Below are positions 41,387 through 58,633 of a stretch of 64,000 nucleotides of DNA, piece after piece (position 1 is the stretch's first letter; each line of letters starts with the position of its first letter). The position numbers and the translations under genes are program-made. The notes under the pieces are model-generated. The model ran no database searches. It had not been told where the DNA came from and saw only the letters and a list, made by a program, of their open reading frames with translations. The stretch lies in contig CAXXKA010000008.1 of the NCBI GenBank assembly GCA_963668625.2, positions 1,184,001 to 1,248,000 on the forward strand, written 5' to 3'. The stretch comes from an uncultured candidate division Zixibacteria bacterium. Its GTDB lineage: Bacteria; Zixibacteria; MSB-5A5; UBA10806; 4484-95.

Positions 41387-41515
41387 AACAATCTCTACGA
41401 TTCTCACATAGCGCATAACTTTCCGGTTCCAAAACGCTGCATCGTAATGAGGGCAGGTAATAAGTTGCTGGTCGCAGGGGCGTATCGAATATGCCTTTTC
41501 CTGCTTAAGGAATTA

Positions 41516-42427
41516 TCAGCCCGGCTTTTTCACCCGAAGCTTAAGCCCCATGTTCTCGAATAATGCCGTACACAACGCTTTTGCCCAGTAATCGTTGGTG
41601 ACATTGATGACGCCGAATATGATACCATCGGAATAACTCACCAGTATCTTGCCGTTGTCATCAGTGATAGCATACACCGACTTCTCGCCGACTCCCGCCA
41701 TGTGAGTCATAATTCGTCCCTGTTTTTGCAGCACTTTCACGAAAGTATCGTATTCGATATTCGTACGGTTCCTGGCGTAGAACAATCGGGTGGTTTTATC
41801 ATACCTGATATAGTCGGCCGACCAACATGATTCGGGTACGGCATAAGAGTCGAAACCTTTCGGCCAGAATTTGAAACTATGTCCGGCCAGTCGTTTGTCG
41901 GGGAACACATCGAACTGGGTCGGCATCATCTCCGACCCCGGTAACAACCGATCCAGCGATTTCGCCAGCGAGGTAAGGCTTTGCAGTTCGGGCAGGTCAT
42001 CTCCGAAAGTATTGATGGTCATGAAATAGCGGTCCTTGAAATAATAAATGTAACCCTCTCCCAAAAGAGATTGCGTGCCAACGCTGATGTAATTATCATC
42101 CGGCATCCTCTTGCGGGCATATATGCCGAATGCCCCCAGCATATCGGAGAACTCGTATATGTCAACCGAATATGTCATGTTGTTTTTTTTATACTCCACG
42201 CCGGCCGCCTGGGTGATATCGTATGCCAGGTACAGTTCCGCGTTGCCGGCGAATTTTTCGGCAAGTTGTTCCCTGGAGAAAACCCTGATATCCGAGGTTC
42301 GGGTAAAATCGGGGAGTTTGGTGGATAGAACGGTGTTAAAATCGATGGCCGGCAATGATTGATTCTCGTATGAGCAGCCGGCAATCATCAGCGCAAATAT
42401 CATTAAATAACATAGTTTCCTGATCAT
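41516..42427 (-). CDS. Lipoprotein of unknown function (DUF6599-like, divergent paralog of 7153-8052)
   Basis: Lipobox IAGC; F....L.....GNAELY..Y, VDIYEF....GAFGIY. Confidence 0.6.
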   Translation of the reverse strand: MIRKLCYLMIFALMIAGCSYENQSLPAIDFNTVLSTKLPDFTRTSDIRVFSREQLAEKFAGNAELYLAYDITQAAGVEYKKNNMTYSVDIYEFSDMLGAFGIYARKRMPDDNYISVGTQSLLGEGYIYYFKDRYFMTINTFGDDLPELQSLTSLAKSLDRLLPGSEMMPTQFDVFPDKRLAGHSFKFWPKGFDSYAVPESCWSADYIRYDKTTRLFYARNRTNIEYDTFVKVLQKQGRIMTHMAGVGEKSVYAITDDNGKILVSYSDGIIFGVINVTNDYWAKALCTALFENMGLKLRVKKPG

Positions 42428-44058
42428 TCCGATTTAACCTTTTTCGGGCGATGCATTATCATCTCATTGGCCGGGTTTCTACTTTCGCCTACTGATGATA
42501 CCCGTATCCCTTTCTTACCCTCGATGGGACAGGCGTATTCGCATGCTCCACATCCTATACATTGATTCGGATCGACCTGTGGACGTTTTAGCGTGATAGT
42601 TTTGCCCGCAGGTGTTACTATCGTATCCTCGCGCAGCCTGATAGCTTTTTGGGAGGTGGGACACCATTCCTCGCAAACCAGGCATTCGGTATCGAACGCC
42701 CAGGGGAGACATCTATTTCTATCTACGAATGCCGTACCGATACTGATTTGCCTTTCGCCGTTTTCACCGTGACGTTTCTCTCTTGTCAGCGCCTCGATAG
42801 CGCCGGTGGGGCAGGCCTGACCGCAAAGTACGCAATTATACTCGCAATAACCGATAACCGGAATCAGGTAGGGCGTGAATATTCCCTCCCAGCCGGCCTC
42901 TAAAAGCGTGGGATGGATGGCGTTTGTCGGACAGATTTTCATGCACTGGCCGCAACGGATACATCTGGATAAAAACTCCTCCTCGGCAATAGTGCCGGGG
43001 GGACGAATCAGTTTGGGCTGTGTTTTAAAGCTATCGGTTCCAGAGCGTAATGCAGGCGCCGCCAGAAGCCCGGTCGCACCGGCTAACAATACCTTGCGTC
43101 GGGTTAGCTGCGGTTTGGGTTTATATTTCTTGCTTTGCTCGAAAAAACCAAACGAGAGCGCGTCATGAGGGCAATCCGCCAGGCAGTTAAGGCAGAGATG
43201 ACATTCCGTACGATGGTGCGGCAGGTCTTGATGAGGGTTATCGCCTCCCTGGCATTTCAACAGGCACTTGTTGCAGCCATCACATTTTGACTCATCCTTT
43301 TTCAAGCCGAAAATCGCAAAACTCGACAGTAGTCCCAGACAGGCCCCGAGCGGACAGATTGCCCGACACCAGAAACGGGTATAAATTCTGTTAGCTACTA
43401 TTATTATCAGAAAAATTAAAGCCAGCCAGAATATGCCATGAAAATGTGGTTGCTTATCGGGTAAGAATAATATGCTAAGGCCGCGATGAAGCCCCTCCCC
43501 GAGCCAGGTGAAAACCACGATATCTCCCGACCATAACCAGGTTATGAAGGTTTTTAAAAGCCAGGTAAGCGATGGCAATACCACCATCGAGAGAGAACGC
43601 CCCAGCAGCGAAATCGGATCGAACACCCCGGTTTGAAGGCTTCCCCAGACAGCCATGCCGGCGAATATCAAAAGTAAATAGTATTTCAGGCTCTGGTATG
43701 GTTTGTAGATATTGGATTGCATCAGCCTTTTAGCGCGATGCTCCCGCCTTTCCGATTTAAACGATGAAAAGAAGTGATTCATCGTGCCCAGCGGGCAAAT
43801 CCAGCCGCAGAAATATCGCCCGAATATTATCGTAGTTATCAAAATGATGAATCCCAGCGCAAGCGTACCGTAAATTATCCCGGCAGTTACCGAGGTACCT
43901 ATCAGGTTAAGGGGGTTGATATCGAAAAAGAATTTCAGCCATGAGGGCACCGATTCTTTATCGGGATTATAATTGTATTGTGTGGCGAATACGAAATACA
44001 TGAAAAGGACGAAAAAAAGTGTTTGCGAGATGATTCTGGCTATTCTGTATTTTTTCAA
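42424..44058 (-). CDS. Membrane polyferredoxin (NapH/MauN-like TM domain fused to NapG/MauM-like domain)
   Basis: GRYFCGWICPLG, RFWCRAICPLG, multiple CxxCxxCxxxC(P) motifs, TRRKVL, IRPPG; TTG start after GGAG. Confidence 0.88.
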   Translation of the reverse strand: MKKYRIARIISQTLFFVLFMYFVFATQYNYNPDKESVPSWLKFFFDINPLNLIGTSVTAGIIYGTLALGFIILITTIIFGRYFCGWICPLGTMNHFFSSFKSERREHRAKRLMQSNIYKPYQSLKYYLLLIFAGMAVWGSLQTGVFDPISLLGRSLSMVVLPSLTWLLKTFITWLWSGDIVVFTWLGEGLHRGLSILFLPDKQPHFHGIFWLALIFLIIIVANRIYTRFWCRAICPLGACLGLLSSFAIFGLKKDESKCDGCNKCLLKCQGGDNPHQDLPHHRTECHLCLNCLADCPHDALSFGFFEQSKKYKPKPQLTRRKVLLAGATGLLAAPALRSGTDSFKTQPKLIRPPGTIAEEEFLSRCIRCGQCMKICPTNAIHPTLLEAGWEGIFTPYLIPVIGYCEYNCVLCGQACPTGAIEALTREKRHGENGERQISIGTAFVDRNRCLPWAFDTECLVCEEWCPTSQKAIRLREDTIVTPAGKTITLKRPQVDPNQCIGCGACEYACPIEGKKGIRVSSVGESRNPANEMIMHRPKKVKSE

Positions 44059-44075
44059 GACTCCATATCCCTTTA

Positions 44076-45035
44076 TCAGATTTCGATTTCAGCTATTTTA
44101 TCGGGGGTGGGTTTGGCGTTGCCCAGTCCCATCTCCTGGCCAAGAGCGATATATCCGAAATCGCTCGGTTGTTTGCTCAAAAAGCGGGTTGCATAAGCGT
44201 CGGCAGCCACCTGGTCGGTGGATGCGATGATGGTGTTATGCGTTATGACATCATCTATACGCCCGCCGGTTGGGCCGTTGCGTTGAAGCACGCGGGTAGC
44301 ATCCTCAATCGTAAGAGTAGCCGGGAACAGCCGGGTAAGCTCTGCCAGGTTCATATCTATCCCCTGGTGAAGGCGGTTACGCGGTCCGGTCAGCGCTCCG
44401 AACCAGTTTTTCATCGCGCCTGTCATCCCGGAAAGCCCGTGATGTTTTACCACCGGCACGTTGAACAGCTTATCGCATTCGAGTATCGGTTTTAGTACCT
44501 GCCATTTTCCCAGGCTCTCCAGTCCGAAATCTACCTCGGTGAAATCGTTATCACCAGCGATTATGACCTCGGCGCCGCTTTGCTCGGCGGCCTCTTTGAT
44601 TCCCGAACGATTATACGTTCGCCGGGCGCTGTTACAGGTAACATCGATGACAACCACACGACCCGCGCCGGCTTTGAGGCACAACTCCACCAGCTCACTG
44701 ACAACATCGGGGTGAGTGTTGGCGCCTAACTCGGGTGTTCTATCCCAACCGATATTGGGCTTTATACATACATAATCGCCTTTGGACACGAAAGCACCGA
44801 TACCGCCAAGCGCCATGATTGCGGCGGTGGTGATTGCGCGCCAGTCTTTACCTTTGGCCGCAACTAATAGTGGATGAGAGGGATCGATATCTACAGAGTA
44901 ATTTTTAGGTGAATAGATTTTAGATATGATGTCATCCTCGTCTCGGCGGTTACCGAGTAACCATACTCCACCACCGATGACGGCTGTTGCCGCCGCCGCT
45001 TTGGCCGATTGCACGATAAATTCACGTCTTTTCAT
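44076..45035 (-). CDS. Tat-signal DUF362 (Fe-S associated) protein
   Basis: MKRREFI; LGGI..FV..GD.V.IKPNIGWDR, ANTHP, NVPVVKHH, MKN..G, D.VA.DAY. Start ATG 45035. Confidence 0.88.
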   Translation of the reverse strand: MKRREFIVQSAKAAAATAVIGGGVWLLGNRRDEDDIISKIYSPKNYSVDIDPSHPLLVAAKGKDWRAITTAAIMALGGIGAFVSKGDYVCIKPNIGWDRTPELGANTHPDVVSELVELCLKAGAGRVVVIDVTCNSARRTYNRSGIKEAAEQSGAEVIIAGDNDFTEVDFGLESLGKWQVLKPILECDKLFNVPVVKHHGLSGMTGAMKNWFGALTGPRNRLHQGIDMNLAELTRLFPATLTIEDATRVLQRNGPTGGRIDDVITHNTIIASTDQVAADAYATRFLSKQPSDFGYIALGQEMGLGNAKPTPDKIAEIEI

Positions 45036-45231
45036 GATGCTCCCAGGCAAGGTTTAGGCGAAAATTTACGGATTTCAAACTGTTTCAAATATGATTATAG
45101 CTTTATTACATCATTGTCAATAATAAAGTTATACGATTATATACGGTTTATCCTACAATTTTATGCGAAATACTTAGTACCTAACCAAATATTAATATCC
45201 CCCTCCAACTCCCGATAGATAATAGAAAGTC

Positions 45232-45260
45232 TTGACATACATAGCGTCAATTCTTATTTT
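45232..45260 (+). promoter_or_regulatory. Sigma70-type promoter of valS
   Basis: TTGACA-17 bp-TATTTT. Confidence 0.5.
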
Positions 45261-45286
45261 TGCGGTCTGATTGAAAGGACATAGTT

Positions 45287-47959
45287 ATGGTCGATATTCC
45301 AAAAGCGTACGATCCGAAGACAGTTGAGGACAGAGTCTACCAGAAATGGCTGGACGCCGGTATTTTCCACGGTGATGTCAATGCCGACAAGAAGTCCTAT
45401 TCAATAGTTATACCGCCGCCGAATGTCACGGATGTTCTGCATATCGGGCATGCCCTGAATAACACTCTTCAGGATATTCTTATCCGCTGGAAGAGGATGC
45501 ACGGGCAGGAGGCCGAATGGCTGCCGGGTGTGGATCATGCCGGTATTGCCACCCAGGTCGTGGTGGAAAAAGCATTAGCCCGCGAGGGACGGTCTCGTCA
45601 CGATATAGGCCGCGAGAAATTCGTTCAGAAAGTATGGAAATGGAAAGAGGATAAATTCGAGCGGATCATTAACCAGTTGAAAAAGATCGGCTGTAGTTGC
45701 GATTGGGATCGAACACGATTCACCATGGATGAGGGCTTATGCAAAGCCGTTATCGAGGTGTTCGTTCAATTGTACGAGAAAGGTCTGATCTATCGCGGCG
45801 AGCGAATCGTGAACTGGTGCCCCGATTGCCTGACCACGCTTTCGGATGATGAAGTCGAGCATGAGGAAATCGATTCTCATCTCTGGTACATTAAGTATAA
45901 GATAAAAGGCTCCGATGAGTTTTTGACCGTGGCCACTACCCGTCCCGAAACCATGCTGGGCGATACGGCCGTGGCGGTTAATCCCGGGGATGAGCGATTC
46001 AAAGACTACATAGGTAAAGCGGCTATCCTGCCGATCATGGATCGCGAGCTGCCGATCGTTGGTGATGAGTATGTCGATATCGAGTTCGGTACCGGCTGTG
46101 TTAAGATCACTCCGGCGCATGATCCCAACGATTTCGATATCGGAATCCGTCACAGCCTGGAGCGTATCAATATCATGAACCAGAATGGTACGTTAAACGA
46201 TAACGCCGGAAAGTATGCAGGTATGGATCGTTACGAAGCGCGCCGTATACTGGTCGAGGAGCTTAAAGAAAAAGGTTATCTCGAGAAGATCGAGGATTAC
46301 AACCTCACCTCGGGTACTTGCTATAGATGTCATACGGTTGTCGAACCGCTCATATCCAAGCAGTGGTTTGTCAAGATGCGCCCCCTGGCCGAGCCGGCGA
46401 TCGCCGCGGTTAAGGAGGGGCGGGTCAAGTTCCATCCCGAGCACTGGGTAAAGACATACCTTCACTGGATGGAGAATGTTCGCGACTGGTGTATCTCCCG
46501 TCAATTGTGGTGGGGGCATCGCATTCCCGTTTACTACTGTGATGATTGCGATGAGGTGATGGTCGCTCGCAGCAAACCCGAAACCTGTGCCCGCTGCGGC
46601 AGCAAGAATATTACGCAGGATAACGATGTGTTAGATACCTGGTTCTCCTCGTGGCTATGGCCATTCTCGACTTTCGGTTGGCCTGATAAAACCCCCGAAC
46701 TGGAGAAATTCTTCCCGACAAGAGCCCTGACAACCGCCTCGGAAATTATCTATCTTTGGGTTGCCAGAATGATTATGGCCTCGCTGGAGTTCATGGGCAC
46801 CGAGCCTTTCGCCGATGTTTACATTCATGGCACGGTCAGGGATGGTGATGGTATCAAGATGTCCAAATCGCTGGGTAACGGTATCGACCCGCTATTGATC
46901 GTTAAAGATTACGGCGCTGATGCTCTTCGTGCCTCGATTATTTTAGCTACGCCCGAGGGGCAGGACCCGCATATATCCGAAAAGACATTCGAGCATGGCC
47001 GTAATTTCGCCAATAAAATTTGGAGCGCCTCGAGATTCGTGCGTATGAACCTGGGCGAGACCAGGCTAACCAAAGATATAGATTTCACCGATGAGAACCT
47101 GGAGATGCCGGATAAGTGGATATTATCCCGTCTGGCAAAATCTATAGGGCTTGTCAATAATTACCTTTCCAGTTTCAAATTCTCCACGGCCGCCAAAGCC
47201 GCTTACGATTTCGCCTGGAACGATTTCTGCAGTAACTACCTGGAAATGATCAAACCTCGCTTGAAACCCGAGAAGAACGGTGATAAGGCCGCTGAAGTCT
47301 CCGCCCGCGCGGCGCGACTGGTAGCCGGTTACGTGCTCACTCGTATTCTCAAGCTGCTGCATCCGTTTATGCCGTTTGTCACCGAGGAGATATGGGGATT
47401 GGTGCTGGAGGATGAGGATAACTCGATGCTGGCCTCGGAGAACTGGCCCGAGCCGAGATTGAAATATATCGATGAGGAACTCGAGGGTTCGATGCAGAAA
47501 GTTATCGAGTTGGCCGAGAAGGTTCGTATCGCCTGTGGTGAACTGGCCGTTCCGCCCGCCAAGAAACCGAAAGTACTGGTCAAATGCGAAAACGATGAAC
47601 TGGTGAAGATTTTCGAAAATCACTCACCGGAGATTCGTAACCTGGCCCGTTCGGGAGAGGTGGAGGTTGGCCGCGATATCACCAAGCCGCCGTTATCGGC
47701 CTCGGCCGTAGTGCCCGGCGCGGAGATTTACATTCCGCTAGAGGGACTTATCGATATCGAGCAGGAGAAAACCAGGCTCGAAAAACAGCTCGAGGAGAAA
47801 ACCGGCTATCGGATCAAACTGGTGAAAAAACTGTCCAACGAGGATTTCGTCAAGCGCGCTCCGGCCGAGGTGGTCGAGTCAGAAAAAGCCAAGCTGATAA
47901 AAACCGAGGAATTGATAGAAAAGTTAAATAAAAACCTTGAATCTCTTTCCGGTTGGTAA
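45287..47959 (+). CDS. valS: Valine--tRNA ligase
   Basis: PPPNVT..LHIGHA, DHAGIATQ, ATTRPETMLGDTAVAV, DWCISRQLWWGHRIP, KMSKSLGN, C-terminal coiled coil. Confidence 0.98.
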   Translation: MVDIPKAYDPKTVEDRVYQKWLDAGIFHGDVNADKKSYSIVIPPPNVTDVLHIGHALNNTLQDILIRWKRMHGQEAEWLPGVDHAGIATQVVVEKALAREGRSRHDIGREKFVQKVWKWKEDKFERIINQLKKIGCSCDWDRTRFTMDEGLCKAVIEVFVQLYEKGLIYRGERIVNWCPDCLTTLSDDEVEHEEIDSHLWYIKYKIKGSDEFLTVATTRPETMLGDTAVAVNPGDERFKDYIGKAAILPIMDRELPIVGDEYVDIEFGTGCVKITPAHDPNDFDIGIRHSLERINIMNQNGTLNDNAGKYAGMDRYEARRILVEELKEKGYLEKIEDYNLTSGTCYRCHTVVEPLISKQWFVKMRPLAEPAIAAVKEGRVKFHPEHWVKTYLHWMENVRDWCISRQLWWGHRIPVYYCDDCDEVMVARSKPETCARCGSKNITQDNDVLDTWFSSWLWPFSTFGWPDKTPELEKFFPTRALTTASEIIYLWVARMIMASLEFMGTEPFADVYIHGTVRDGDGIKMSKSLGNGIDPLLIVKDYGADALRASIILATPEGQDPHISEKTFEHGRNFANKIWSASRFVRMNLGETRLTKDIDFTDENLEMPDKWILSRLAKSIGLVNNYLSSFKFSTAAKAAYDFAWNDFCSNYLEMIKPRLKPEKNGDKAAEVSARAARLVAGYVLTRILKLLHPFMPFVTEEIWGLVLEDEDNSMLASENWPEPRLKYIDEELEGSMQKVIELAEKVRIACGELAVPPAKKPKVLVKCENDELVKIFENHSPEIRNLARSGEVEVGRDITKPPLSASAVVPGAEIYIPLEGLIDIEQEKTRLEKQLEEKTGYRIKLVKKLSNEDFVKRAPAEVVESEKAKLIKTEELIEKLNKNLESLSGW

Positions 47960-48118
47960 TATATTTACGCCCGCGTTTATTAAACTTGACGTATTCCTGA
48001 TCCGGGCGGGCACAATATAAATTGCTCACAATAGTAACTCGCCGAGAAACGAACTTCACGAGATTTCATCGAGCGGTTTTCGTGGGCACACGATTTTGAA
48101 TAAATACTGCGTTTAGTG

Positions 48119-48146
48119 AGGCGGTTTGATCAAGCCGCCTTTTTTA
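48119..48146 (+). terminator. Intrinsic terminator downstream of valS
   Basis: AGGCGGTTTG-AT-CAAGCCGCCT followed by TTTTT. Confidence 0.85.
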
Positions 48147-48208
48147 TTTGTACTTGCGGAGTGATATGGCGTTTATTATTTTGTGAGCTATAAGCTAAGG
48201 GGTTAGTT

Positions 48209-50962
48209 ATGGAAAAACTTTCAGCATCACAGTTTGCTCGAAAATTAAAAGATCTTATATGTAATGATACTGATAGGAAAATGGTTTTCTTTCTAGGTTC
48301 AGGCTGCTCAGTAAGTTCAGGTATCGGGGATGCCGCTACGCTTGTGAAAAGGTGGCTGCCTCGTTATAAAAAGATAATAACAGGTGATGAAAAGAATTAC
48401 ATTGAATGGGCAAAAGAAAAGTTTCCGGGATTTAATGGAGAAAATTTATCATTCATCTATAAAGACGTAATGGAAAAACTGTTTCATAGTTTAGAGGAAA
48501 GACAAGCAGAAACAGAGGACATCTGTCGAAATAAAGCTCCGGGATTTGGATACGCGGTTTTAGCGCAATTACTTTCTCACAGTAAGTATGGAAAGCATTG
48601 CAATATTATATTAACAACTAATTTTGATGATATAATGGCTGACGCTCTATATTTATTTACGAATGATAAGCCTTTGGTGATCGTTCATGAGTCTTTGATT
48701 AGCTATGTTAAAATTAATTACACCAGACCTTTAATTGTTAAACTTCATGGAGATGCTAGGATTTATCCAAAACATACAGAGGGTGAAACAACAGACTTTG
48801 AAAAAAATGTAAAAGAAAGTGTTAAAAAATTGCTGGTAGAATCAGGCCTTATTTTTATTGGATATGGAGGCAATGACTCAAGCGTATATAATATAATCAA
48901 TAGTTTGCCGCCCGGTGCGCCGCCAACCGGAATTTACTGGGTTGGGAACTCAATCCCAGACACTGACTTAGGTCGAGAGTTAGTGAAAAGGAATGTCGTG
49001 CATGTTGATCATTTTGATTTTGATGAGTTAATGCTATTTATTAAAAACGAATTTGAGTTAGAAAAGCCAAATAAAAAACGTATTGAGAATATTTTTGATA
49101 ACTATAATGAGAAATTTAAAAATTTAAACAAAAAAATATTTAGTAGACCGGAAACTCCTGAAAATGATGAGCTTGAGAAAGCTGCAGATAAAGCTGCCAA
49201 AGAATTTAAAGACTGGTATTCTGTATTGCTTGAAGCTTCTAAATTTGAGAAATCAGAACCGGATAAGGCTGATAATATCTTCAAAAATGGATTCAAAAAG
49301 TTTCCAGGAAGTGTAGAATTGAATGGAGCTTATGCTATATTTTTAAAGGATATTCGCAAAGACTATGATCGGGCGGAAGAGTATTATAAGAAGGCTTTAG
49401 AGCTTGATCCTGACAATGCCATTGTTCTAGTAAATTATGCTAATTTTTTTCAGAATATTCGCAAAGCCTATGACCGGGCGGAAGACTATTATAAGAAGGC
49501 TTTAGAGCTTGCTCCTGATAGTGCCAATGTTCTAGGAAATTATGCTTTATTTTTACATACTATTCGTAAAGCCTATGACCGGGCGGAAGACTATTATAAG
49601 AAGGCTTTAGAGCTTGATCCTGATAATACCATTGTTCTAGTAAATTATGCTATATTTTTAAAGGATATTCGCAAAGACTATGACCGGGCGGAAGACTATT
49701 ATAAGAAGGCTATAGAGCTTGCTCCTGATAATGCCAGTGTTCTAGGAAATTATGGTAATTTTTTACAGACTATTCGCAAAGACTATGACCGGACGGAAGA
49801 CTATTATAAGAAGGCTTTGGAGCTTGATTCAGATAATGCCAGTATTCTTGGCAATTATGCATTATTCTTACATGAAATTCGTGGAGACTTTAACCGGGCG
49901 GAAGACTATTATAAGAAGGCTTTGGAGCTTGATTCAGATAATGCCAGTATTCTTGGCAATTATGCATTATTCTTACATGAAATTCGTGGAGACTTTAACC
50001 TAGCAGAAGAGTATTATAGGAAATCTATAGAGCTTGCTCCTGATAATGCCATTGTTCTAGGAAATTATGCTATATTTTTAAAGGATATTCGCAAAGGCTT
50101 TGAGCAGGCGGAAGACTATTATATGAAGGCTTTGGAGCTTGCTCCTGATAATGCCAGTGTTCTAGGAAATTATGCTAATTTTTTACAGACTATTCGCAAA
50201 GCCTATGACCGGGCGGAAGACTATTATAAGAAGGCTTTAGAGCTTGCTCCTGATAATGCCAATGTTCTAGGAAATTATGCTAGCTTTTTAGATGATATTC
50301 GTAAAGACTATGACCGGGCGGAAGACTATTATAAGAAGGCTTTGGAGCTTGCTCCTGATAATGACAATGTTCTAGTAAATTATGCTATCTTTTTAGATGA
50401 TATTCGTAAAGACTACGACCGGGCGGAAGACTATTATAAGAAGGCTTTGGAGCTTGATCCTAATAATGCCAGTGTTCTAGGAAATTATGCTATATTTTTA
50501 AAGGATATTCGCAAAGCCTATGACCGGGCGGAAGACTATTATAAGAAGACTATAGAGCTTGATCCTGATAATGCCAATAATCTAGGCAACTATGCAGGCT
50601 TTTTACTAGCTCAAGGGAGGCGTGATGAGGGCAAGGAGTATCTTTTTAGAGCGATGAATGACGCTGCAATCCGAGATTTAATCTTAGAATGCAAATTCTA
50701 TTATTATGTGCATATTGATTTTGGCAGTGAGCAGAATATCTATTTAAAAGAAATTAAGAAGTTAATATTAGATAATATTAGATCGCCTAACTTCAACCTT
50801 ACCGATAATGTCAACCGCGCTATTAAGGATGGCCACCCGGAGCCGGAGTTCTTGAAACTGCTGGCTAAGGTTATAGCTGATGAAGTGGATGCTAAAGAGT
50901 TGGATAAATTCGAGGTTTGGCGTAATACCACTATTGATGGTGAAGATGAATCTAAGCAGTAA
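48209..50962 (+). CDS. SIR2-like (defence-type NADase) domain fused to 12 near-identical TPR/HAT-like repeats
   Basis: [45 protein letters not shown]; visibly AT-richer than valS. Confidence 0.88.
49331..50590 (+). repeat. Twelve tandem 105-bp coding repeats (35 aa each)
   Basis: Unit TATGCT...GACCGGGCGGAAGACTATTATAAGAAGGCTTTAGAGCTTG.TCCTGATAATGCC...CTAGGAAAT recurs with exact 105-bp period; the 13th, divergent unit begins at 50591. Confidence 0.97.
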
Positions 50963-50979
50963 TTATTTATAGATCAACT

Positions 50980-51582
50980 ATGCAAACCCTCTCCCAAATC
51001 ACCGAACCCGAGGTTATCCTCGAGTTCCTCAATGCCGAGATCGGCTCGCCCAGGTGGGCCTCAGAGCTTGAACAGCTATTGCAGCAGGAGGGATATGATA
51101 AGTCGCTGATATCAAGGGGCGATACCTCGGACGATACAGAGAATGCTGTTCGCAAGGAGATACTATATCAGTTCCGTGACTGCGAGGATAAACGTCATTT
51201 CCATGGATTGCCGGAGGATATCGTCTGGCATACCACATTGCTATCCGGGGAGGATATTGCCAAGCTTCGATATATGAACTATCCGTTCTGGGTGAATCTA
51301 TCAGGCTGGTCTCGACTCGCTATTGAGGGTGCCGGTAATCTCGAGCGCGCGGGTGTCCGCTCCGATTTAGTTAATCATATTAAACAGACCGCAAAACTTA
51401 TCATCGAGCGGGAAACTCTTCCGAGAATAATACTGCTGGCTAAAAGCATAAAGGACGATCCGGTGATATTAGAGGGGCATATACGAGCTACCGCGTATTG
51501 CTTGAATATCGAGAAGATGTCTGGAAGTATCGAGGCGATTGTCGGCTACTCGAAAAATATCGAAAGCTGGAAATGGTATTGA
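50980..51582 (+). CDS. Hypothetical protein with a possible ParB/sulfiredoxin-like motif
   Basis: 17 bp after the SIR2-TPR stop; P.IIL......VILEGHIRATAY resembles the ParB/Srx (I/L)(D/E)GHxR motif. Confidence 0.6.
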   Translation: MQTLSQITEPEVILEFLNAEIGSPRWASELEQLLQQEGYDKSLISRGDTSDDTENAVRKEILYQFRDCEDKRHFHGLPEDIVWHTTLLSGEDIAKLRYMNYPFWVNLSGWSRLAIEGAGNLERAGVRSDLVNHIKQTAKLIIERETLPRIILLAKSIKDDPVILEGHIRATAYCLNIEKMSGSIEAIVGYSKNIESWKWY

Positions 51583-51621
51583 TAAGCATTTGCTTACACT
51601 GACTGACTACTGATAATTGAC

Positions 51622-51656
51622 GGATTGCTTCGTCCGCTTCGCTACCTCGCAACAAC
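51622..51656. repeat. Degenerate GATTGCTTCGTC...CCTCGCAA palindromic repeat (related copy at 52217-52248)
   Basis: GGATTGCTTCGTCCGCTTCGCTACCTCGCAAC and AGATTGCCGTGTCGCCTTCGGCTTCTCGCAAG share ends and spacing; they resemble a widespread intergenic palindrome family. Confidence 0.5.
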
Positions 51657-51677
51657 AGGTTTATCAAACGGCAAGAG

Positions 51678-52073
51678 TTACTGGCTGATACGTGATTTTA
51701 TCCAATCCTCACCCAGCATGGTCTCCGCCTCGCCCTCGGCATCCTCGACATACTCCAGTGGCACGAGTATCAGGTATCCACCGCCAATCGGCCGGAACGA
51801 GCCGAATCCCAACTGGCCGGTGACCCCGAAATGACCGGTCTCGGATATCATCATGGCGGGGATATCCTTAGCTTTGAGCCCCTCTATCACCATCTCGGCG
51901 TACTGGTTGGAGGTAAGCCGGGCCAGCGGCTGCCAGTTCTCGTAGCCGGCGCTGATATCGTCGTCATCGACTTTGATCTCCACCGGCAGTTGATCGACCA
52001 GTTGCTCATCGCAGTCGGGGCATTTGTATATGCCCTGCTTATATTCGTATCTGCATTTCGGACAGAACGGCAT
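51678..52073 (-). CDS. Zinc-ribbon plus DUF2007-like (putative signal-transducing) protein
   Basis: MPFCPKC.YEY..G...CPDC...LV; AEMV...L....IP; ILVP.E..E.A. Confidence 0.75.
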   Translation of the reverse strand: MPFCPKCRYEYKQGIYKCPDCDEQLVDQLPVEIKVDDDDISAGYENWQPLARLTSNQYAEMVIEGLKAKDIPAMMISETGHFGVTGQLGFGSFRPIGGGYLILVPLEYVEDAEGEAETMLGEDWIKSRISQ

Positions 52074-52526
52074 GAGGTCTCCTTTTAATATACTATACGG
52101 GAAAATCGGTTAAATATTCAAATATAAATTATCGTGGTCAGAGTATATCCGCTTGCTGTAACTGGTTTACTGTAGCCTGTACCGGCGGATGAGGAGGGGA
52201 TATCTAATTAGCAGGCAGATTGCCGTGTCGCCTTCGGCTTCTCGCAAGCTGCCCCATCTCAGGCTATCATCGTGAGGTGGGGCAGCCCTGGATTATTAAA
52301 TTGTAGTGCTTATAAGATTGCTTTTCCCAGGCTGTAAGCTTTGATTGACAGATACTCCTATTGGAAAGCGAGCAGGAGAGCCAACCACGAATATCGACAA
52401 CTAAATTGACAGTTCGATACAGATTATTGACTATATCACTTGCAAGCAGGCCCGGTTTGTTCTTATAATCTATCAAAATGAGAATAATTAACCGGTATTA
52501 CCGGAGTTTCTAATTAGGAGGATAAT

Positions 52527-53507
52527 ATGCCGCTTCTACTTAACCGTGATGATGTTATAAAAGTACTGGATATGCGCGATTGTATGGATGTCGTCGAAAA
52601 AGCATTTGCTGAACTGGCTAACGGTACCGCCGTATTGCCTCTTCGTATTAATATAACACCCCCTGACGGCTTGGCCTTGTATATGCCGGCTTATTTGAAA
52701 GAGTTAGGCGCGCTGGCCTGTAAAGTCGTTACCGTATATAAGAATAACCCGAAAGCCCACGATATGCCAACCACTATCGGCAAGGTGCTATTGCAAGATC
52801 CGGCTACCGGCGATGTTATCTGTATCATGGATGGCGGCTATCTGACTGCTGTCAGGACAGGTGCGGTCTCCGGTGTGGCTACCAAGTATCTGTCTCGTGA
52901 ATCCAAAGGTCAGGTTGCCGGGATATTCGGCGCCGGGGTACAGGCCAAGATGCAACTCTGGGCTGTAGCCGTGGCTCGCGATTTGAAAAAAGCTTATGTT
53001 TATGATGTTTCCCCTGAGGCGGCCGGTAGTTTCAAAACCGATATGAGCAATAAGCTTAACCTCGATATCGAGATAGCCGGTTCGGCCGGCGATATTATCA
53101 ATAATTGCGACATTATTTGCACCGCTACCTCCGCGCCGGAGCCTATTTTCGATGGCAACACGGTGAAAGACGGCGCGCATATCAATGGAATCGGCAGCCA
53201 TACGCCAAACGCTCGCGAGCTGGATACGGCAATAATCAAGCGCTCGAAATTCATTGCCGACTCGTATGAGGCCTGCCTGAAAGAGGCCGGCGATATCATG
53301 ATCCCGATACAGGAAGGCGCGATCGATAAAAATCACATGTTTGCCGAGTTGGGCGAGGTAATTACCGGCAAGAAACCGGCGCGCGAAAACGATTCGGAGA
53401 TCACCCTGTTTAAATCAAACGGTCTGGCTATTCAGGATGTCGCCACGGCTAAGCTGATATACGATAAAGCGGTAGCCGCCGGTATCGGGCAGGATGTCAA
53501 TATCTAA
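52527..53507 (+). CDS. Ornithine cyclodeaminase/mu-crystallin family protein (possibly archaeal-type alanine dehydrogenase)
   Basis: LYMPAY, KVVTVY..N, LTAVRTGA, GAGVQA, HINGIGS..P..RELD, FKSNGLAIQD. Confidence 0.88.
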   Translation: MPLLLNRDDVIKVLDMRDCMDVVEKAFAELANGTAVLPLRINITPPDGLALYMPAYLKELGALACKVVTVYKNNPKAHDMPTTIGKVLLQDPATGDVICIMDGGYLTAVRTGAVSGVATKYLSRESKGQVAGIFGAGVQAKMQLWAVAVARDLKKAYVYDVSPEAAGSFKTDMSNKLNLDIEIAGSAGDIINNCDIICTATSAPEPIFDGNTVKDGAHINGIGSHTPNARELDTAIIKRSKFIADSYEACLKEAGDIMIPIQEGAIDKNHMFAELGEVITGKKPARENDSEITLFKSNGLAIQDVATAKLIYDKAVAAGIGQDVNI

Positions 53508-53675
53508 CGGCGGAAATATTCGGCTGTTTTAAAATCTATATTTGTTGCCGGCTATGGGCCTTAAGTGAACTATTTCACTTGCATTTAAGTATCTATTTGC
53601 ATAATATTCGTCGTTGGAATATTATTGCGTCTCCAGGCGTAATATGGTATAAACGATAAACCCTGGAGGTAAATT

Positions 53676-55052
53676 ATGTTGAGAAATTTAACCGCGATTT
53701 TAGTATTAGGTCTGGCTGTCATAGCTTTTGCCGGGGATGATCCCGGAGTGTCTATCACTATTTATAACAATAACCTCGGGCTGGTTAAGGATGTCCGCGG
53801 GTTGGATATTCAAAAGGGTGCCGGTATCCTCGATTTCGATGATGTCGCCTCGCAAATCGATCCCACCAGTGTTAATTTCCGCTGCCTCGATGACGACAAC
53901 GTAGCGGTGCTGGAACAGAACTACCTCTACGATTTAGTATCGACCGAGGCGTTGTTGAAACGCTATCTCGGCAAGCAGATAGAGATAATCGGTGAGGATG
54001 ATACCCGGTTCAAAGGCGAGCTGTTATCGTTCGATAATCGAGCTGCCATTATTAAAGAAGATGGCGGTCAAATCGTGATGATCTCCATGGATAAGCTGAT
54101 AAATGGTCGTTTCCCGTCACTGCCCGAGGGTTTGATAATAAAGCCGACTCTTCGCTGGGAACTGGAATCGAACTCCTCCGGCAATAAAAACTGCGAGGTC
54201 AGCTACCTGACAAGTGGTATTCAGTGGAATGCCGATTACGTGGCGGTGGTAAACGATAAAGACACGAAGCTTGATCTATCCGGCTGGGTGACTATCAACA
54301 ACAGTAGTGGCGCCTCGTACGAAAACGCTAAGCTGAAACTGGTAGCAGGTGATATTCATCAGGTAACCACGCCGCAATTTGATAGGATGGAGATGTCTTT
54401 AAACAGGTCTGGCGCTAAAGCCGCACCACAGTTCGAGGAGGAATCGTTTTTCGAATATCATCTCTACACGCTCAACCGTCCCGCTACGGTAAACGATAAA
54501 GAGATCAAGCAGCTTACGCTGTTCCCCACGGCACAAGCCAAAGTTAAGAAAGTATATATATTCAATTCCCGACCTTCATATTATAGCCGGGGTAGCGATA
54601 AATCCAAAGTCAGAGCTAATCTTGAATTCGATAATACTAAATCAGCCGGCCTGGGGATGCCACTGCCGAAAGGTAAACTTCGCGTTTACAAAGAGGACTC
54701 GCAAGGTGCTCTGCAATTTGTCGGTGAGGACCAGATCGATCACACACCCAAGGGTGAGAAGGTGCGTGTGTATCTCGGGGATGCTTTCGATATTACCGGC
54801 GAGCGTAAACTAATTAATGTTGAAGACCTGGGCGGAGACCGTCGCCGTGAGACTGTCGAGGTTACTCTAAAAAATCATAAAGATGAGGATGTAGTAGTCA
54901 CGGTGGTGGAACGTGCCAGTGGTTGGCGTGAATGGAAGATAGAAAACTCCAGCCATGAATATCGCAAGGTCGATAATTCTCAAATAGAATTCGATTTAAA
55001 TGTTAAAAGTAACGATGAAGAAACTTTAAATTATACAATACAATACTTCTAG
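53676..55052 (+). CDS. Secreted DUF4139-domain protein
   Basis: SITIYNNNLGLVKD, EQNY.YDL, YLT.G..W.ADY, N.SG..Y.NA.LKLVAG, FFEYHLY, LGMPLPKG..RVY, GED.IDHTP. Confidence 0.85.
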   Translation: MLRNLTAILVLGLAVIAFAGDDPGVSITIYNNNLGLVKDVRGLDIQKGAGILDFDDVASQIDPTSVNFRCLDDDNVAVLEQNYLYDLVSTEALLKRYLGKQIEIIGEDDTRFKGELLSFDNRAAIIKEDGGQIVMISMDKLINGRFPSLPEGLIIKPTLRWELESNSSGNKNCEVSYLTSGIQWNADYVAVVNDKDTKLDLSGWVTINNSSGASYENAKLKLVAGDIHQVTTPQFDRMEMSLNRSGAKAAPQFEEESFFEYHLYTLNRPATVNDKEIKQLTLFPTAQAKVKKVYIFNSRPSYYSRGSDKSKVRANLEFDNTKSAGLGMPLPKGKLRVYKEDSQGALQFVGEDQIDHTPKGEKVRVYLGDAFDITGERKLINVEDLGGDRRRETVEVTLKNHKDEDVVVTVVERASGWREWKIENSSHEYRKVDNSQIEFDLNVKSNDEETLNYTIQYF

Positions 55053-55061
55053 AACGGAGGG

Positions 55062-56105
55062 ATGATGAGTAAAAAATTAATTTTAGGGTTGGCTCTGGTT
55101 TTAGCGGCGATATTTATTTTTGGCTGTCAGCCCAAGGAATTAAGAACTGTTAAGATCGAGCTGGGTACCTGGAAGAAACCGAAATCCAATCCGAGTATCG
55201 AAAGGGTAAAAGAAAATCTCGCTAAAGCGGAGAATACGACGCCTAATAATCCCGAGGTATATTTCCTGTGGGGACGAGTCTATGCCATGGAAAATAATTA
55301 CGAGGAAATGGATAAGTCCTGGGATAAATGTGATGAGCTTTCTGATGCTTTCGATGCCAGCATGGATACATTGCGGATGATGGAATGGGATACGCTTTTC
55401 ATCCAGAGCGCGGTTAAATCTTATCAGAACGGTGATTACGAAGCGGCCCTGGATAAATCGCAAAAAGCGATTATTTGTTGGGAGCATAACTATCAACCAT
55501 TCCTTTACGGCGCGGATGCCGCTTATCGCCTGGGAAACAATGAGCTTGCTTATGATTTGTCCAAAGCAGGTTACGAGGTTTCCCCCGACACGATTACGAT
55601 GGCAAGGTTGTATGCCGAGATGTGTTTCGTGAGTGATAAGCTCGATGAGGCAAAAGGTGTATTCGAGAAACTGATTGTCAATGACGCCACGAACGCCGAC
55701 TACTATTTCAATCTTGGAGAGATTGACCTGGCTCTGGGCGATACCACGAGAGCTCTCGAGTATTATGTACAGGGTTTGGATAAAGATAAGGATAATCCGG
55801 ATGGTTGGCTCAATATCGCAAAGCTGTATTTCCTGCTCAAGAAGTATCCGGAGGCGGTTGATGCATTCGAACATTTCAAATCACTGGCTGAGACTGTCGG
55901 CAAGGATGATATGTTCTTATACCTGCTTGCGGTATATCAGGTAAAGGACTACGAAAAAGCAAGAGCCGAATTGGAAGTTTTCACTATGGAAAATCCGGAC
56001 TATTGCGAGGCCTGGCAGCTACTCGGTAACTGCTACGTTCACTTGCAAAAGAATAAGGAAGCCAGAGCGGCTAACGATAAATACGACGAGTGTGTCGGCC
56101 AATAG
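55062..56105 (+). CDS. TPR-repeat lipoprotein
   Basis: Lipobox IFGC; several divergent TPRs (YYFNLGEI, GWLNIAKLY, AWQLLGNCY). Confidence 0.8.
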   Translation: MMSKKLILGLALVLAAIFIFGCQPKELRTVKIELGTWKKPKSNPSIERVKENLAKAENTTPNNPEVYFLWGRVYAMENNYEEMDKSWDKCDELSDAFDASMDTLRMMEWDTLFIQSAVKSYQNGDYEAALDKSQKAIICWEHNYQPFLYGADAAYRLGNNELAYDLSKAGYEVSPDTITMARLYAEMCFVSDKLDEAKGVFEKLIVNDATNADYYFNLGEIDLALGDTTRALEYYVQGLDKDKDNPDGWLNIAKLYFLLKKYPEAVDAFEHFKSLAETVGKDDMFLYLLAVYQVKDYEKARAELEVFTMENPDYCEAWQLLGNCYVHLQKNKEARAANDKYDECVGQ

Positions 56106-56129
56106 CTATTTCTAGATAGCTAAAATCAT

Positions 56130-56162
56130 CAGGCAGTCCGTTACGCGGGCTGCCTTGTTTTG
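56130..56162 (+). terminator. Hairpin/terminator between the TPR gene and priA
   Basis: AGGCAGTCCG-TTACG-CGGGCTGCCT followed by TGTTTTG. Confidence 0.55.
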
Positions 56163-56173
56163 TCTTAATACTT

Positions 56174-58579
56174 ATGTTTGCTGAAATAGTAATACCTAAA
56201 ACCGGATTTAGATCGTTCACCTATACTATACCCGAACAGATCGAAAGCTCGATCAGGCCGGGCATGCCCGTTCTGGTGTCGATTCAACGTAACTATGCCG
56301 TGGGTGTGGTTATAAAATTATCCGAATCGAGTGGTGTCGAAAGCTCGCGCCTAAAAGAGATTATTGGCTTGATCGACCCGGTATTTTGCCTTTCGGATAA
56401 ACAGCTCGAGCTGATGAGATGGATATCGGATTACTATATCAGTCCGCCCGGGGATGTTTTAAAAGCGGCTTTCCCGCCGGGATTTTTAGGTAGAACAAGA
56501 ACGAGAGTTTTAGCTGGAAAGGAAGCGCCCGATAATGCCAGGGATAAATTCGTCTACGAGAAAATTAGTTCGCGGCCGGAGGGGTATCCCTATAATCTCA
56601 AAAAGCAGATTTTACCCGGTGTCTCCAATACGATAATCAAAGAACTGATCGCTCGCGCGGTACTATTCCTAGCTCCAGACTATAAAATTCAGCAGCCCAA
56701 ACGGATTTTCTACGCTTATCTTCATGATGATATAGATCCTGTCGTGGTGATTAAAGACCTGACTCCTAAAAGACGTCAGTTGTTGGAATATCTTATCAGT
56801 CACCCGGAAGGCATCTCCTTAGTGAAACTGGTCGAGGAAGGTTTTTCTCGAGATACGATAAAGAAAATGGCCGAAGCTGAGATTATCGAGCTCGAACAGC
56901 GAAGCGATGATGTGATAATCCAGCCTCGTCCCGATGGCGAGTTTAACACATACGAGCTTACCGGCTATCAACAGGAGGCGTATCGGGCAATCGAGGAGTC
57001 GCTCGAAAAAAGCGCCGGCAAAGCATTCCTGATTTACGGCGTTACCGGTTCGGGTAAGACCTTAGTCTATATCGAAGCCGCCAGAAAAGCCCTGTCTATG
57101 GGTAAATCGGTGTTGATCCTATTGCCGGAGATATCGTTAACCCCTCAAGCGATAGAGAGATTCGCTTCATCGCTAAAGCAGCCTATCGCTATCTGGCATT
57201 CGCGCATCACTATCGGCCAACGTCACGAGATTTACCGCAAGGCCAAAACCGGGGAGATTCGGGTGGTGTTGGGGGTACGTTCGGCCGTGTTCAGTCCGCT
57301 TCAGAACCCGGGCTTGATCATCATAGATGAGGAGCAGGATGACTCGTACAAGCAGTCGGAACCGCAGCCGTATTACAACGCCCGGGATGTTGCCTTAATG
57401 AGGGCGAAGATCGAAAACGTGACTACGGTGCTTGGATCGGCTACACCATCACTTGAAAGCTTTTATAATGGCGAAAACGGTAAGTATGAACTTCTGAGAT
57501 TACCTGAGAGATACGGCGGGGTAAAGCTACCCAAAGCCATTGCTATCGACTTGAAAGAAGTTGATATAGATCAGGAAATCTGGCCGCTTTCCGAACCTTT
57601 TATAGATAGGGTTTGCACGCATATAGCTGATGGCAGGCAGGTAATAATTCTTCTTAACCGTCGTGGCTACTCGGGGCTTCTGATGTGCCAGACATGTGGT
57701 TATATCTCGCTCTGCCCCGAATGCCGGGTGGCTTTAACTTATCACAAAACGGATAAGAAACTTCACTGCCATTTCTGTGATTTCATACAGGATGCCCCGG
57801 AAAAGTGCCCCGAATGTAAGGGGAAGGATTTCGATTACCGGGGGATAGGTACGCAGAAACTGGAGGAGATGCTGATTGAGATTCTCGGTGAGAAAGGTAT
57901 AATCCGCATGGACTCGGATTCCACCTCTCGCAAAGGCGCGTTGGAGAAAATAATCTCCACGTTCGAGATAGGCGAGAGGCCGGTATTGCTGGGCACCAGG
58001 ATGGTAGCTAAAGGGCATCATTTCCCGAAGGTAGGTATGGTTGGAGTGGTTTTAGCCGATGCCGGCTTACATTTGCCCGATTTTCGCGCGGCGGAAAAAG
58101 TGTTCCAGCTTCTGGTGCAGGCGGCGGGACGAGCCGGGCGTACCGGCAACAGCGATGATCAGGGCGAGTTCGTGGTGCAATCGTACGATCCCTCCTCCGG
58201 CATCCTGGATTATGCAACCAGCCAGAACTACGAGGTGTTTTACAGGCGGGAATCGGCTTTTCGGCAGGAACTTGGTTACCCGCCCTATGGTAAAATCATA
58301 AGGCTGATATTTTCTCACGAGGATCACTCACTGGCAAAATGGGCGGCTCGCCAGGCGGCATCTACGTTGCGCAAAGAGTTAACCTCGGGAAAAGTTCTGG
58401 GACCTGCTATGACCGGTGTGTTTCGGCTCAGGAATAAATATCATTTTCAGGTGATGTTGAAAGGGCGCTTTTCTGCCGACTTTAAAAATAGGCTCAGGAG
58501 CCATCTGAGTGAGGGGCACTTCGGTGGCAAAAAAGGAGTCGCGGTCAAGATCGATGTCGATCCGCGAGATATGGTATAA
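56174..58579 (+). CDS. priA: Primosomal protein N' (replication restart helicase)
   Basis: GVTGSGKT, PEISLTPQ, IIDEEQD, GSATPSLES, LNRRGY, CxxC zinc motifs, KGHHFP, Q.AGRAGR, DVDP. Confidence 0.97.
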   Translation: MFAEIVIPKTGFRSFTYTIPEQIESSIRPGMPVLVSIQRNYAVGVVIKLSESSGVESSRLKEIIGLIDPVFCLSDKQLELMRWISDYYISPPGDVLKAAFPPGFLGRTRTRVLAGKEAPDNARDKFVYEKISSRPEGYPYNLKKQILPGVSNTIIKELIARAVLFLAPDYKIQQPKRIFYAYLHDDIDPVVVIKDLTPKRRQLLEYLISHPEGISLVKLVEEGFSRDTIKKMAEAEIIELEQRSDDVIIQPRPDGEFNTYELTGYQQEAYRAIEESLEKSAGKAFLIYGVTGSGKTLVYIEAARKALSMGKSVLILLPEISLTPQAIERFASSLKQPIAIWHSRITIGQRHEIYRKAKTGEIRVVLGVRSAVFSPLQNPGLIIIDEEQDDSYKQSEPQPYYNARDVALMRAKIENVTTVLGSATPSLESFYNGENGKYELLRLPERYGGVKLPKAIAIDLKEVDIDQEIWPLSEPFIDRVCTHIADGRQVIILLNRRGYSGLLMCQTCGYISLCPECRVALTYHKTDKKLHCHFCDFIQDAPEKCPECKGKDFDYRGIGTQKLEEMLIEILGEKGIIRMDSDSTSRKGALEKIISTFEIGERPVLLGTRMVAKGHHFPKVGMVGVVLADAGLHLPDFRAAEKVFQLLVQAAGRAGRTGNSDDQGEFVVQSYDPSSGILDYATSQNYEVFYRRESAFRQELGYPPYGKIIRLIFSHEDHSLAKWAARQAASTLRKELTSGKVLGPAMTGVFRLRNKYHFQVMLKGRFSADFKNRLRSHLSEGHFGGKKGVAVKIDVDPRDMV

Positions 58580-58633
58580 ATCTTGACCATCACTAATTAA
58601 TTTTGTAATTTCTGAATTCTTTATGGAGGCAAA

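Follow-up and report, generated by a model that had tools for sequence, protein, structure and literature searches.

This analysis concerns a single gene in a 64,000-nucleotide stretch of DNA (hereafter, the window) from an uncultured candidate division Zixibacteria bacterium (GenBank assembly GCA_963668625.2, contig CAXXKA010000008.1, positions 1,184,001 to 1,248,000 of the forward strand), together with the protein family to which its product belongs. The gene is an open reading frame (ORF) at 48209..50962 on the plus strand, with an intact frame of 917 amino acids (aa) and an ATG start, and its product joins in one chain an intact SIR2 domain of the defense type and an array of tetratricopeptide repeats (TPRs), with no nucleoside triphosphatase (NTPase) module. 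A pattern scan finds the GxGxS-type loop at residue 30, TTNFD at 136, KLHG at 178 and FIGY at 216; Pfam places SIR2_2 (PF13289) over residues 133-235 (E 1.1e-10, 42.2 bits against a cutoff of 24.5, and 45.5 bits when the whole genome is searched) and matches many TPR families, down to E 1e-64. Neither Walker A, in its standard or deviant form, nor GK[ST] turns up in the 917 residues in the same kind of scan, and there is no NTPase family among 25 of the 27 Pfam matches of the protein. A preliminary description of this DNA had claimed a direct fusion of this kind, with four intact SIR2 motifs, a helical linker, 12 near-identical 35-aa repeats and a cap, no Walker A motif, and a position just after the valS terminator. 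All of this is borne out, with the cap turning out to be a conserved 124-aa tail and the gene beginning 67 nt past the stem of the valS hairpin.

The SIR2 head has its nearest relatives in anti-phage systems. The best PADLOC models are SIR2 proteins associated with prokaryotic Argonaute (pAgo), with E 1.6e-27 over residues 21-270, and these alignments reach only model positions 17-275 of 1010; a candidate system, PDC-S65, is also matched in part (E 2.7e-13, residues 28-234 aligned to positions 36-244 of a 592-position model). No PADLOC model extends past the SIR2 domain, in agreement with the earlier expectation that the protein would match no described system, and the 7 PADLOC families that match at E<=0.01 include no DSR model. 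The sole PDB sequence matches are the Sir2 chains of SPARSA (8jkz, 8jl0 and 8in8; E 1.4e-10), and in the PDB alignment the GxGxS loop, TTNFD, HGD and GY are in register with the SPARSA chain. An AlphaFold2 (AF2) model of residues 1-320, with a predicted local distance difference test score (pLDDT) of 85 and a predicted template modeling score of 0.81, has SPARSA chain 8y80_E as its top Foldseek match (E 2.8e-13, TMq 0.68), followed, among the matches listed, by KomBC, SIR2-HerA, ThsA, Avs5 (filament chain 9nc9_R) and DSR2 (8wyb_A, E 5.8e-07, TMq 0.43). All the listed matches are anti-phage SIR2 proteins, and no classical deacetylase or sirtuin is among them. T137, N138, F139, D140, D141, K178, H180, D182, G218 and Y219 are invariant in all 15 aligned family members. 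In the DSR2 study (PMC11850899), the catalytic pocket of DSR2 is given as N133, D135 and H171, the counterparts of N138, D140 and H180, and depletion of nicotinamide adenine dinucleotide (NAD+) is lost in the H171A and N133A-H171A mutants. Because of these sequence and fold neighbors, the invariant catalytic columns and the residue equivalence with DSR2, the enzyme head is best described as an intact defense-type SIR2, and we infer from the same comparisons that it would act as an NADase.

The repeats that follow the head are strikingly regular. Tandem Repeats Finder reports a single array at 49330..50595 with a period of 105 nt, 12.1 copies, 86% matches and zero indels, which at the protein level becomes 12 units, each exactly 35 aa long, at residues 374-793, with a degenerate 13th unit opening the tail. 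The count of 12 units depends on the assembly of the window itself, because no contig among those of three public runs of one study spans the array; these contigs have 0 differences on both flanks and break at 49359 and 50519. Metagenome contigs of many homologs (for example, at loci L002, L003, L017, L019 and L028) also terminate within the repeat array, so that short-read assemblies probably give too low a count of family members and cut them short.

Comparison of the 12 units with one another shows higher identity in DNA (85%) than in amino acids (73%), with the differences clustered at unit positions 7, 4, 8 and 32, then 12. By the Nei-Gojobori method, the ratio of nonsynonymous to synonymous differences (pN/pS) is 2.42 at positions 4, 7, 8, 12 and 32, and the remaining 30 positions give 0.50, a contrast that is descriptive only, since it concerns 5 codons picked after the variation was seen; the value of 0.50 indicates purifying selection on the units outside the variable positions. 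Among 50 homologs with at least 6 units, the window protein excluded, the highest within-protein entropy is found at positions 8, 32, 7 and 4, and the per-position variability profiles of the window protein and the homologs are correlated (Spearman 0.51, p 0.0018), the check being based on entropy and the homologs being phylogenetically non-independent. In the model of the tail, described below, unit positions 2-8 form helix A, 12-25 form helix B, and 29 onward form the next helix A. From this placement it follows that positions 32, 1, 4 and 7/8 (i, i+4, i+3, i+3/4) make a stripe on one face of helix A, presumably the one that lines the concave ligand-binding groove of a TPR superhelix. Units also resemble their own array: the median similarity is 0.56 within proteins versus 0.40 between proteins, and in 52 of the 106 proteins with at least 4 units, the units are closer to one another than to those of any other protein. 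The window protein, with a within-protein likeness of 0.73, ranks 19th of these 106. The 35-residue period prevails in the family, a spacing of 35 between successive units occurring 602 times and the next commonest, 34, only 11 times.

Beyond the units, the tail (residues 794-917) is predicted to be all-alpha with an AF2 pLDDT of 93.8, and an alignment of 35 sequences gives it the motifs ECxFYxYAH, GxRSPGWD, NVxRAxxDGHP and LAxVIxDE. Foldseek finds no structural match for it at E<=0.001, and phmmer finds nothing credible in the PDB, where the best match is a designed repeat protein (E 0.00099 over 44 residues). The best VIA-align matches are TPR proteins that cover tail residues 1-65 only, at a Z of 7.3, which is under the trust level for helical repeats. 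Our reading of the tail is that one or two degenerate TPR hairpins come first and that a subdomain particular to the family comes after them. A search with the single tail sequence, which is shallow, returned 9 matches, all with SIR2. A tail profile returned 26 proteins, of which 18 carry SIR2_2, 3 carry a ParA/MinD-type P-loop domain and 5 consist of TPRs and the tail only. In the ParA/MinD-type proteins (P0274, P0275 and P0277), the 35-aa units and tail of the SIR2 family come after a P-loop domain with a KGGVGRT-type motif. One of the SIR2-less proteins (P0264, 422 aa, units and tail only) comes from a 2.4-Mb contig; the other 4, whose contigs measure 1.9-7.6 kb, could be fragments. Since the same units and tail occur behind a ParA/MinD-type domain and alone, the TPR-plus-tail sensor is a portable module, mostly attached to SIR2.

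The family is large and patchily distributed. With residues 1-330 as the query, 662 protein clusters were found at E<=1e-3 among 4649 candidates, and the 120 listed, the window's own protein aside, have 43-59% identity and lengths of 511-871 aa. All 120 carry PF13289, and nearly all carry TPRs as well; for P0099, P0101, P0104 and P0106, PF13289 is listed alone. Their source names are both bacterial (Chloroflexi, Syntrophobacterales, Desulfobacteria, Zixibacteria, Nitrospirae) and archaeal (Methanothrix, Methanosarcina, Heimdallarchaeota, Odinarchaeota). When 1.84 billion representatives were searched exhaustively, 2328 matched at E<=1e-3 and 383 did so at E<=1e-30; in the matches listed, the SIR2 domain stands at the N-terminus. 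From the cluster list and the exhaustive-search list, 256 family proteins were collected, and among them the SIR2 domain is N-terminal in 247, the linker is present in 182, at least one 35-aa unit in 219, and the tail stands at the extreme C-terminus in 166. Both ends are present in 162 of the 256; in these the unit count runs from 0 to 13, and the length minus 35 times the number of units has a median of 494 aa. Because this remainder of about 494 aa is constant, both ends are kept and the unit count varies, the family can be described, from its sequences, as a fixed SIR2-linker-tail frame around a variable number of unusual 35-aa TPR units. The window protein carries all four parts and is near the upper end of the family in unit number. 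The longest members, at 1087-1195 aa, have SIR2_2 and extra TPRs only. Table 1 collects the features of the locus.

Table 1. Features of the SIR2-TPR gene and its surroundings (window coordinates).
Feature	Position	Strand	Remarks
valS	45287..47959		
Terminator-like hairpin of valS	48118..48141	+	10-bp stem, 5 GC pairs, then T-run tail TTTTATTTGT; left edge of the inserted segment
Shine-Dalgarno-like AAGGGG	48197..48202	+	6 nt upstream of the ATG at 48209; read from the sequence
SIR2_2 domain, residues 1-285	48209..49063	+	Pfam, PADLOC, PDB, alignment, AF2, Foldseek
NAD-site motifs			G30xG32CSxxSG38; T136-T137-N138-F139-D140-D141; K178-L-H180-G-D182; G218-Y219
Conserved helical linker, residues 286-373	49064..49327	+	in 182 of the 256 collected family proteins
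Twelve near-identical 35-aa TPR units, residues 374-793	49328..50587	+	hypervariable unit positions 4, 7, 8, 32
Degenerate 13th unit and predicted all-alpha C-terminal module, residues 794-917, with stop codon	50588..50962	+	
200-aa ORF, co-inserted	50980..51582	+	not a conserved partner

Within its own lineage, the gene is patchy. The window's genome (4.3 Mb in 10 contigs, 95.9% complete) has one SIR2-TPR copy, which is also its sole SIR2_2 gene; the domain is found in neither of 2 same-genus genomes, and strong matches (E<=1e-85) occur in 3 of 40 relatives (genomes G009, G018, with locus L011, and G022, with locus L038), with weak ones in three more genomes. The copy in G022 (locus L038, contig C6, 4080-6962) is an ORF of 960 aa that begins with a UbiD fragment (residues 1-258) and continues in the same frame as a SIR2-TPR protein without its first ~102 residues, the GxGxS loop included; it is probably a decayed or chimeric copy.

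Synteny with relatives, in five of which valS is 75-81% identical and in both same-genus genomes of which the DUF362 gene upstream of valS is in place, shows that the gene is an inserted, accessory one. In genome G006, the order is valS, a zinc-ribbon homolog, two inserted genes, DUF4139 and TPR347, and since both the SIR2-TPR gene and the 200-aa ORF are missing there after valS, these two make up an insertion of about 3.5 kb that reaches from the valS terminator to the zinc-ribbon gene at 51678..52073. Terminal repeats at the insertion are at chance level only (for example, 30 nt at 70% identity), there is no tRNA gene in 40000-60000, and no integrase or transposase among the flanking genes marks it. 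The preliminary description had also taken note of the AT-richness of the gene, and the composition is as stated: the GC content is 0.32-0.39 in 500-nt windows over 48000-50999 versus 0.50-0.52 in valS, and 0.362 for the gene as a whole against 0.462 for the remainder of the window. On its own, however, this does not prove recent transfer, because low GC travels with the family gene; the low GC may simply reflect composition, and as a sign of a recent transfer it is weak.

The interval between valS and DUF4139 is itself variable. In G006, a same-family relative, a complete PD-Lambda-5 system (locus L082, contig C21, 5204-7533; A, E 4.4e-135; B, E 1.2e-120) lies between the zinc-ribbon homolog and DUF4139, where the window has an ornithine cyclodeaminase gene. 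In the same-genus genome G001, the gene directly downstream of valS (locus L080, contig C27, 1-1980, minus strand) is cut by the contig end and encodes at least 660 aa in an Avs-like layout, in which an unknown domain at the N-terminus precedes nSTAND_NTPase5 and TPRs of the ordinary 34-aa length. This last gene was considered as a relative of the SIR2-TPR sensor and rejected, having no match to the unit or the tail. In G009, the interval holds an unknown 539-aa gene. Because PD-Lambda-5 and the nSTAND5-TPR gene occupy the same interval, this variable stretch with defense cargo in relatives supports a role in conflict for the SIR2-TPR gene.

How, then, does the protein stand to known systems? 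In layout, the closest is DSR2 of Bacillus subtilis, which is likewise a single chain with an N-terminal SIR2 NADase and an alpha-solenoid sensor, no NTPase, and the catalytic Asn, Asp and His conserved. DSR2 has been characterized structurally and in cells, and its repeats bind a phage tail tube protein, after which NAD+ is depleted (PMC11850899). The window protein has the DSR2/DSR1 layout down to the lack of a partner gene, a likeness that is architectural only; it matches no DSR2/DSR1 model over its full length, its SIR2 domain is closer to that of SPARSA than to that of DSR2, and in place of the MID and HEAT-like C-terminal domains of DSR2 it has a regular TPR array and a distinct tail. 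The closest SIR2 domain by sequence and predicted fold is that of SPARSA (8jkz, 8in8, 8y80). However, the window protein is without APAZ, the SPARSA matches ending near residue 270-315 and the C-terminal part being TPR, and it lacks the short pAgo partner: no Piwi gene (PF02171) is found in its own 95.9%-complete genome, in a search in which control genomes gave matches, and the neighboring genes have other annotations. Sensing would be through the TPRs and not through a guide nucleic acid. The protein is closest to DSR2 in its presumed working and to the SPARSA SIR2 domain by descent, and because there are no DSR models, MID or HEAT regions, APAZ or pAgo partner, it is a member of neither.

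The other comparisons are more distant. Thoeris ThsA differs in that no SLOG or Macro domain is among the Pfam matches listed for the window protein, and no ThsB-type TIR gene is a neighbor, since one of the two TIR_2 genes is on contig C1 and the other, although on C8, is about 181 kb distant. Avs/STAND proteins such as Avs5 share the SIR2 effector and the TPR-type sensor; in the window protein, however, there is no NTPase module, no Walker A, and no space for one between residue 285 and the repeats, so that NTPase-driven activation is impossible. For SIR2-HerA, no HerA-like gene is among the 8 flanking genes scanned, no genome-wide search having been made, and PDC-S65 is not matched over its full length. 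The effector-TPR-GreA/B-C-PIN proteins have the same order of an N-terminal effector, then TPRs, then a constant C-terminal region, and according to Kaur et al. 2021 (PMC8195603) the effector can be SIR2; in contrast, the window tail is a 124-aa all-alpha module by prediction, with neither GreA/B nor PIN among the Pfam matches listed, and the protein does not belong to that system. In Kaur et al. 2020 (eLife 52696), neither "SIR2" nor "TPR-S" occurs.

A likeness of another sort is to the NOD-like receptors (NLRs) of fungi, whose TPR, ANK and WD repeats are described in PMC4986451 as having high internal conservation, number variation and few diversifying positions. Near-identical tandem repeats, variation in number, concerted evolution and a few diversifying positions on the binding surface are common to both; the fungal proteins differ in having a NOD domain, whereas the window family is prokaryotic and has its effector fused directly. 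The likeness is in the mode of sensor evolution, not in ancestry.

The preliminary description had presented the protein as a new design, and in principle it is not one, DSR2 being already a SIR2 domain fused to a solenoid sensor without an NTPase; that description had named DSR1/2 solely for their use of the effector. We found in the literature no characterized SIR2-TPR protein that lacks an NTPase, and the supplementary tables of surveys, like the tree source data of the FAM118 paper (PMC12700824), could list members. A figure legend in that paper puts TPR among the domains attached to SIR2_2 proteins, and SIR2-NACHT-TPR proteins in eukaryotes are mentioned in a preprint. The principle is known; the family, the 35-aa unit with its conserved hypervariable positions, the tail and its portability are undescribed in the searchable literature.

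The reading that we favor, at a probability of roughly 55%, is that the window protein is a ligand-gated NADase for defense, a one-protein sensor and effector of the DSR type. Because Piwi, adjacent TIR or HerA genes and an NTPase are absent, the protein must sense and act alone, as DSR2 does. The TPR superhelix would be the receptor, with a groove lined by helix-A positions 32, 4, 7 and 8, to which a protein or peptide derived from an invader would bind; the signal would pass through the linker to a pair or higher assembly of SIR2 domains, whose conformation or oligomeric state would change; and the NAD+ site (N138, D140 and H180) would open, NAD+ would be hydrolyzed, and the infected cell would arrest or die. 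In this scheme the NADase activity, the nature of the ligand, the route of activation and the protection from phage are what we infer. Unequal recombination, possible because the units are near-identical at the DNA level, may add, remove and shuffle units and thereby give a fast turnover of specificity. The proposed pairing is through residues 107-116, 141-160 and 286-310, which form the symmetric interface in a two-copy prediction of the SIR2 domain; the first linker helix (289-311 in the AF2 model) sits in this interface. The predicted homodimer scores 0.66 versus 0.00 for the best control, a level that 20 of 30 solved pairs but just 1 of 23 single chains attained, and the runs have a contact agreement of at least 82% and a partner pLDDT of at least 81.

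Several points weigh against this reading. The dimer pass may be the model's memory, because SIR2 oligomers have already been solved. The enrichment of homologs in defense islands that the preliminary description proposed to look for is absent among 128 neighbors within 4 kb at 17 well-flanked loci (a set from which L067, L072 and L073 were dropped); no Pfam family recurs in more than 2 of the 128, and most are metabolic. PADLOC neighbors at E<=1e-10 are sporadic, with mad2 in 3 members and DpdF, PsyrT, GajB-like and PycC in 1 each. The flanks in the window are, apart from the insertion, housekeeping genes. The GC content of the family gene is below that of its flanks at 38 of 45 loci, with a median difference of -0.073, and this is the family-wide trait that takes the force from AT-richness as a sign of transfer. 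Among IMG/VR viral contigs, 47 pattern matches to close relatives were found and none was confirmed. To these may be added the confinement of the PADLOC matches to the SIR2 domain, the post hoc choice of the five codons, and the reliance of the homolog check on entropy and on related sequences.

The lack of a confirmed relative on viral contigs and the neighborhoods without phage-defense genes could also speak for a ligand-gated NADase tuned to something other than phage, namely plasmids, other mobile elements or non-self cells. So could the likeness of the repeats to those of the fungal NLRs, a group in which some members govern allorecognition (PMC4986451 and PMC13449251). However, the structural neighbors listed for the SIR2 domain are all anti-phage, nothing points to a route for sensing cell contact or plasmids, and distant relatives are found beside integrase genes in temperate viruses. 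SIR2-domain relatives of 25-36% identity occur in 5 plasmids and 4 phage records, and two of them, at 29-32% identity, in Haloferax virus Halfgib1 and a Vibrio tectivirus-like element, are integrase-adjacent, a typical position for cargo. These mobile-element proteins are without the tail and clear 35-aa units, the protein of a Photobacterium plasmid having weak TPR-like matches only, and they belong to a wider clade and not to the SIR2-TPR-tail family. On balance we regard a conflict receptor with a non-phage target as unlikely.

The metabolic character of most homolog neighborhoods and the housekeeping flanks in the window might instead be taken to mean that the protein is a host regulatory enzyme, a deacylase or ADP-ribosyltransferase acting on a cellular target recruited by the TPRs, with no role in immunity. 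Against this are the patchy occurrence of the gene and its place in an insertion, the lack of a classical sirtuin among the structural matches listed, and the position-specific diversification of the repeats, which is unexpected for a fixed host target. We would put this account on a par with the preceding one, and hold both to be improbable beside a DSR-type defense protein.

The second gene of the insertion, the 200-aa ORF that begins 18 nt after the SIR2-TPR stop, has to be considered as a possible antitoxin, regulator or co-sensor in a two-gene system, the two genes being neighbors with one orientation, neither of which is present at the syntenic site in relatives. No Pfam, PADLOC or NCBIfam family matches the ORF, it is not found in 5 relatives, and a homolog of it is beside none of 65 homolog loci. 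At these loci an all-against-all comparison of 532 neighbors within 6 kb gave no conserved partner gene of any kind, the largest cluster covering 6 loci. Moreover, its GC content is 0.486, which is host-like, versus 0.362 for the SIR2-TPR gene. For want of a family match, of occurrence in relatives and of a place beside homologs, and because of this host-like GC, the ORF is a separate passenger, and a two-gene system is very unlikely. Its look-alikes in the Atlas are clusters of ~200-aa hypothetical proteins (0.97) and DUF6309 (0.93). That the SIR2-TPR gene is itself a recently acquired passenger, unexpressed, non-functional or decaying in this host, is just as hard to credit, for although the truncated, UbiD-fused copy in G022 means that decay does occur in the family, here the frame of 917 codons is intact, no catalytic or frame motif is missing, a ribosome-binding site of its own precedes the gene, and pN/pS points to purifying selection on the units outside the variable positions. 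RNA runs for the gene are absent from the records, which counts neither way.

If the window protein is an active DSR-type sensor and effector, it would be a compact, single-gene, NTPase-free sensor-NADase with a regular and probably re-programmable TPR recognition surface, and the DSR principle would then reach into a large family, mainly of uncultured anaerobes and archaea. A broader and distinctly more tentative proposal is that the whole family is a prokaryotic, NTPase-free, variable-repeat immune receptor, in which units are recombined and four groove positions diversify, so that the attached NADase is re-targeted; the sensor is a portable module, and the tail would couple ligand binding to activation. 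Were this true, it would be a bacterial and archaeal counterpart of the fungal NLR repeats with high internal conservation, and the behavior of the repeats would link prokaryotic immunity to the concerted evolution seen there. Current defense catalogs detect the SIR2-TPR-tail family only via its SIR2 domain. An active member would also lend itself to studying how SIR2 activity is gated by a solenoid sensor and what molecule, from phage or elsewhere, is read.

A few minor observations can be added. At locus L035, in a record titled as a Klebsiella pneumoniae metagenome-assembled genome, the flank GC is 0.666, which is presumably too high for Klebsiella, and we take the bin label to be doubtful. 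In genome G003, a 162-aa gene lies downstream of valS (locus L083, contig C66, 524-1012, minus strand); we take it to resemble a REP-associated or IS200-type tyrosine transposase. The zinc-ribbon gene at the right edge of the insertion (minus strand) encodes a protein of 131 aa that has two N-terminal CxxC pairs and a weak similarity (E 2e-4, far under the cutoff) to the NCBIfam zinc-ribbon (seleno)protein DG, and a partial homolog of it is at the syntenic place in G006.

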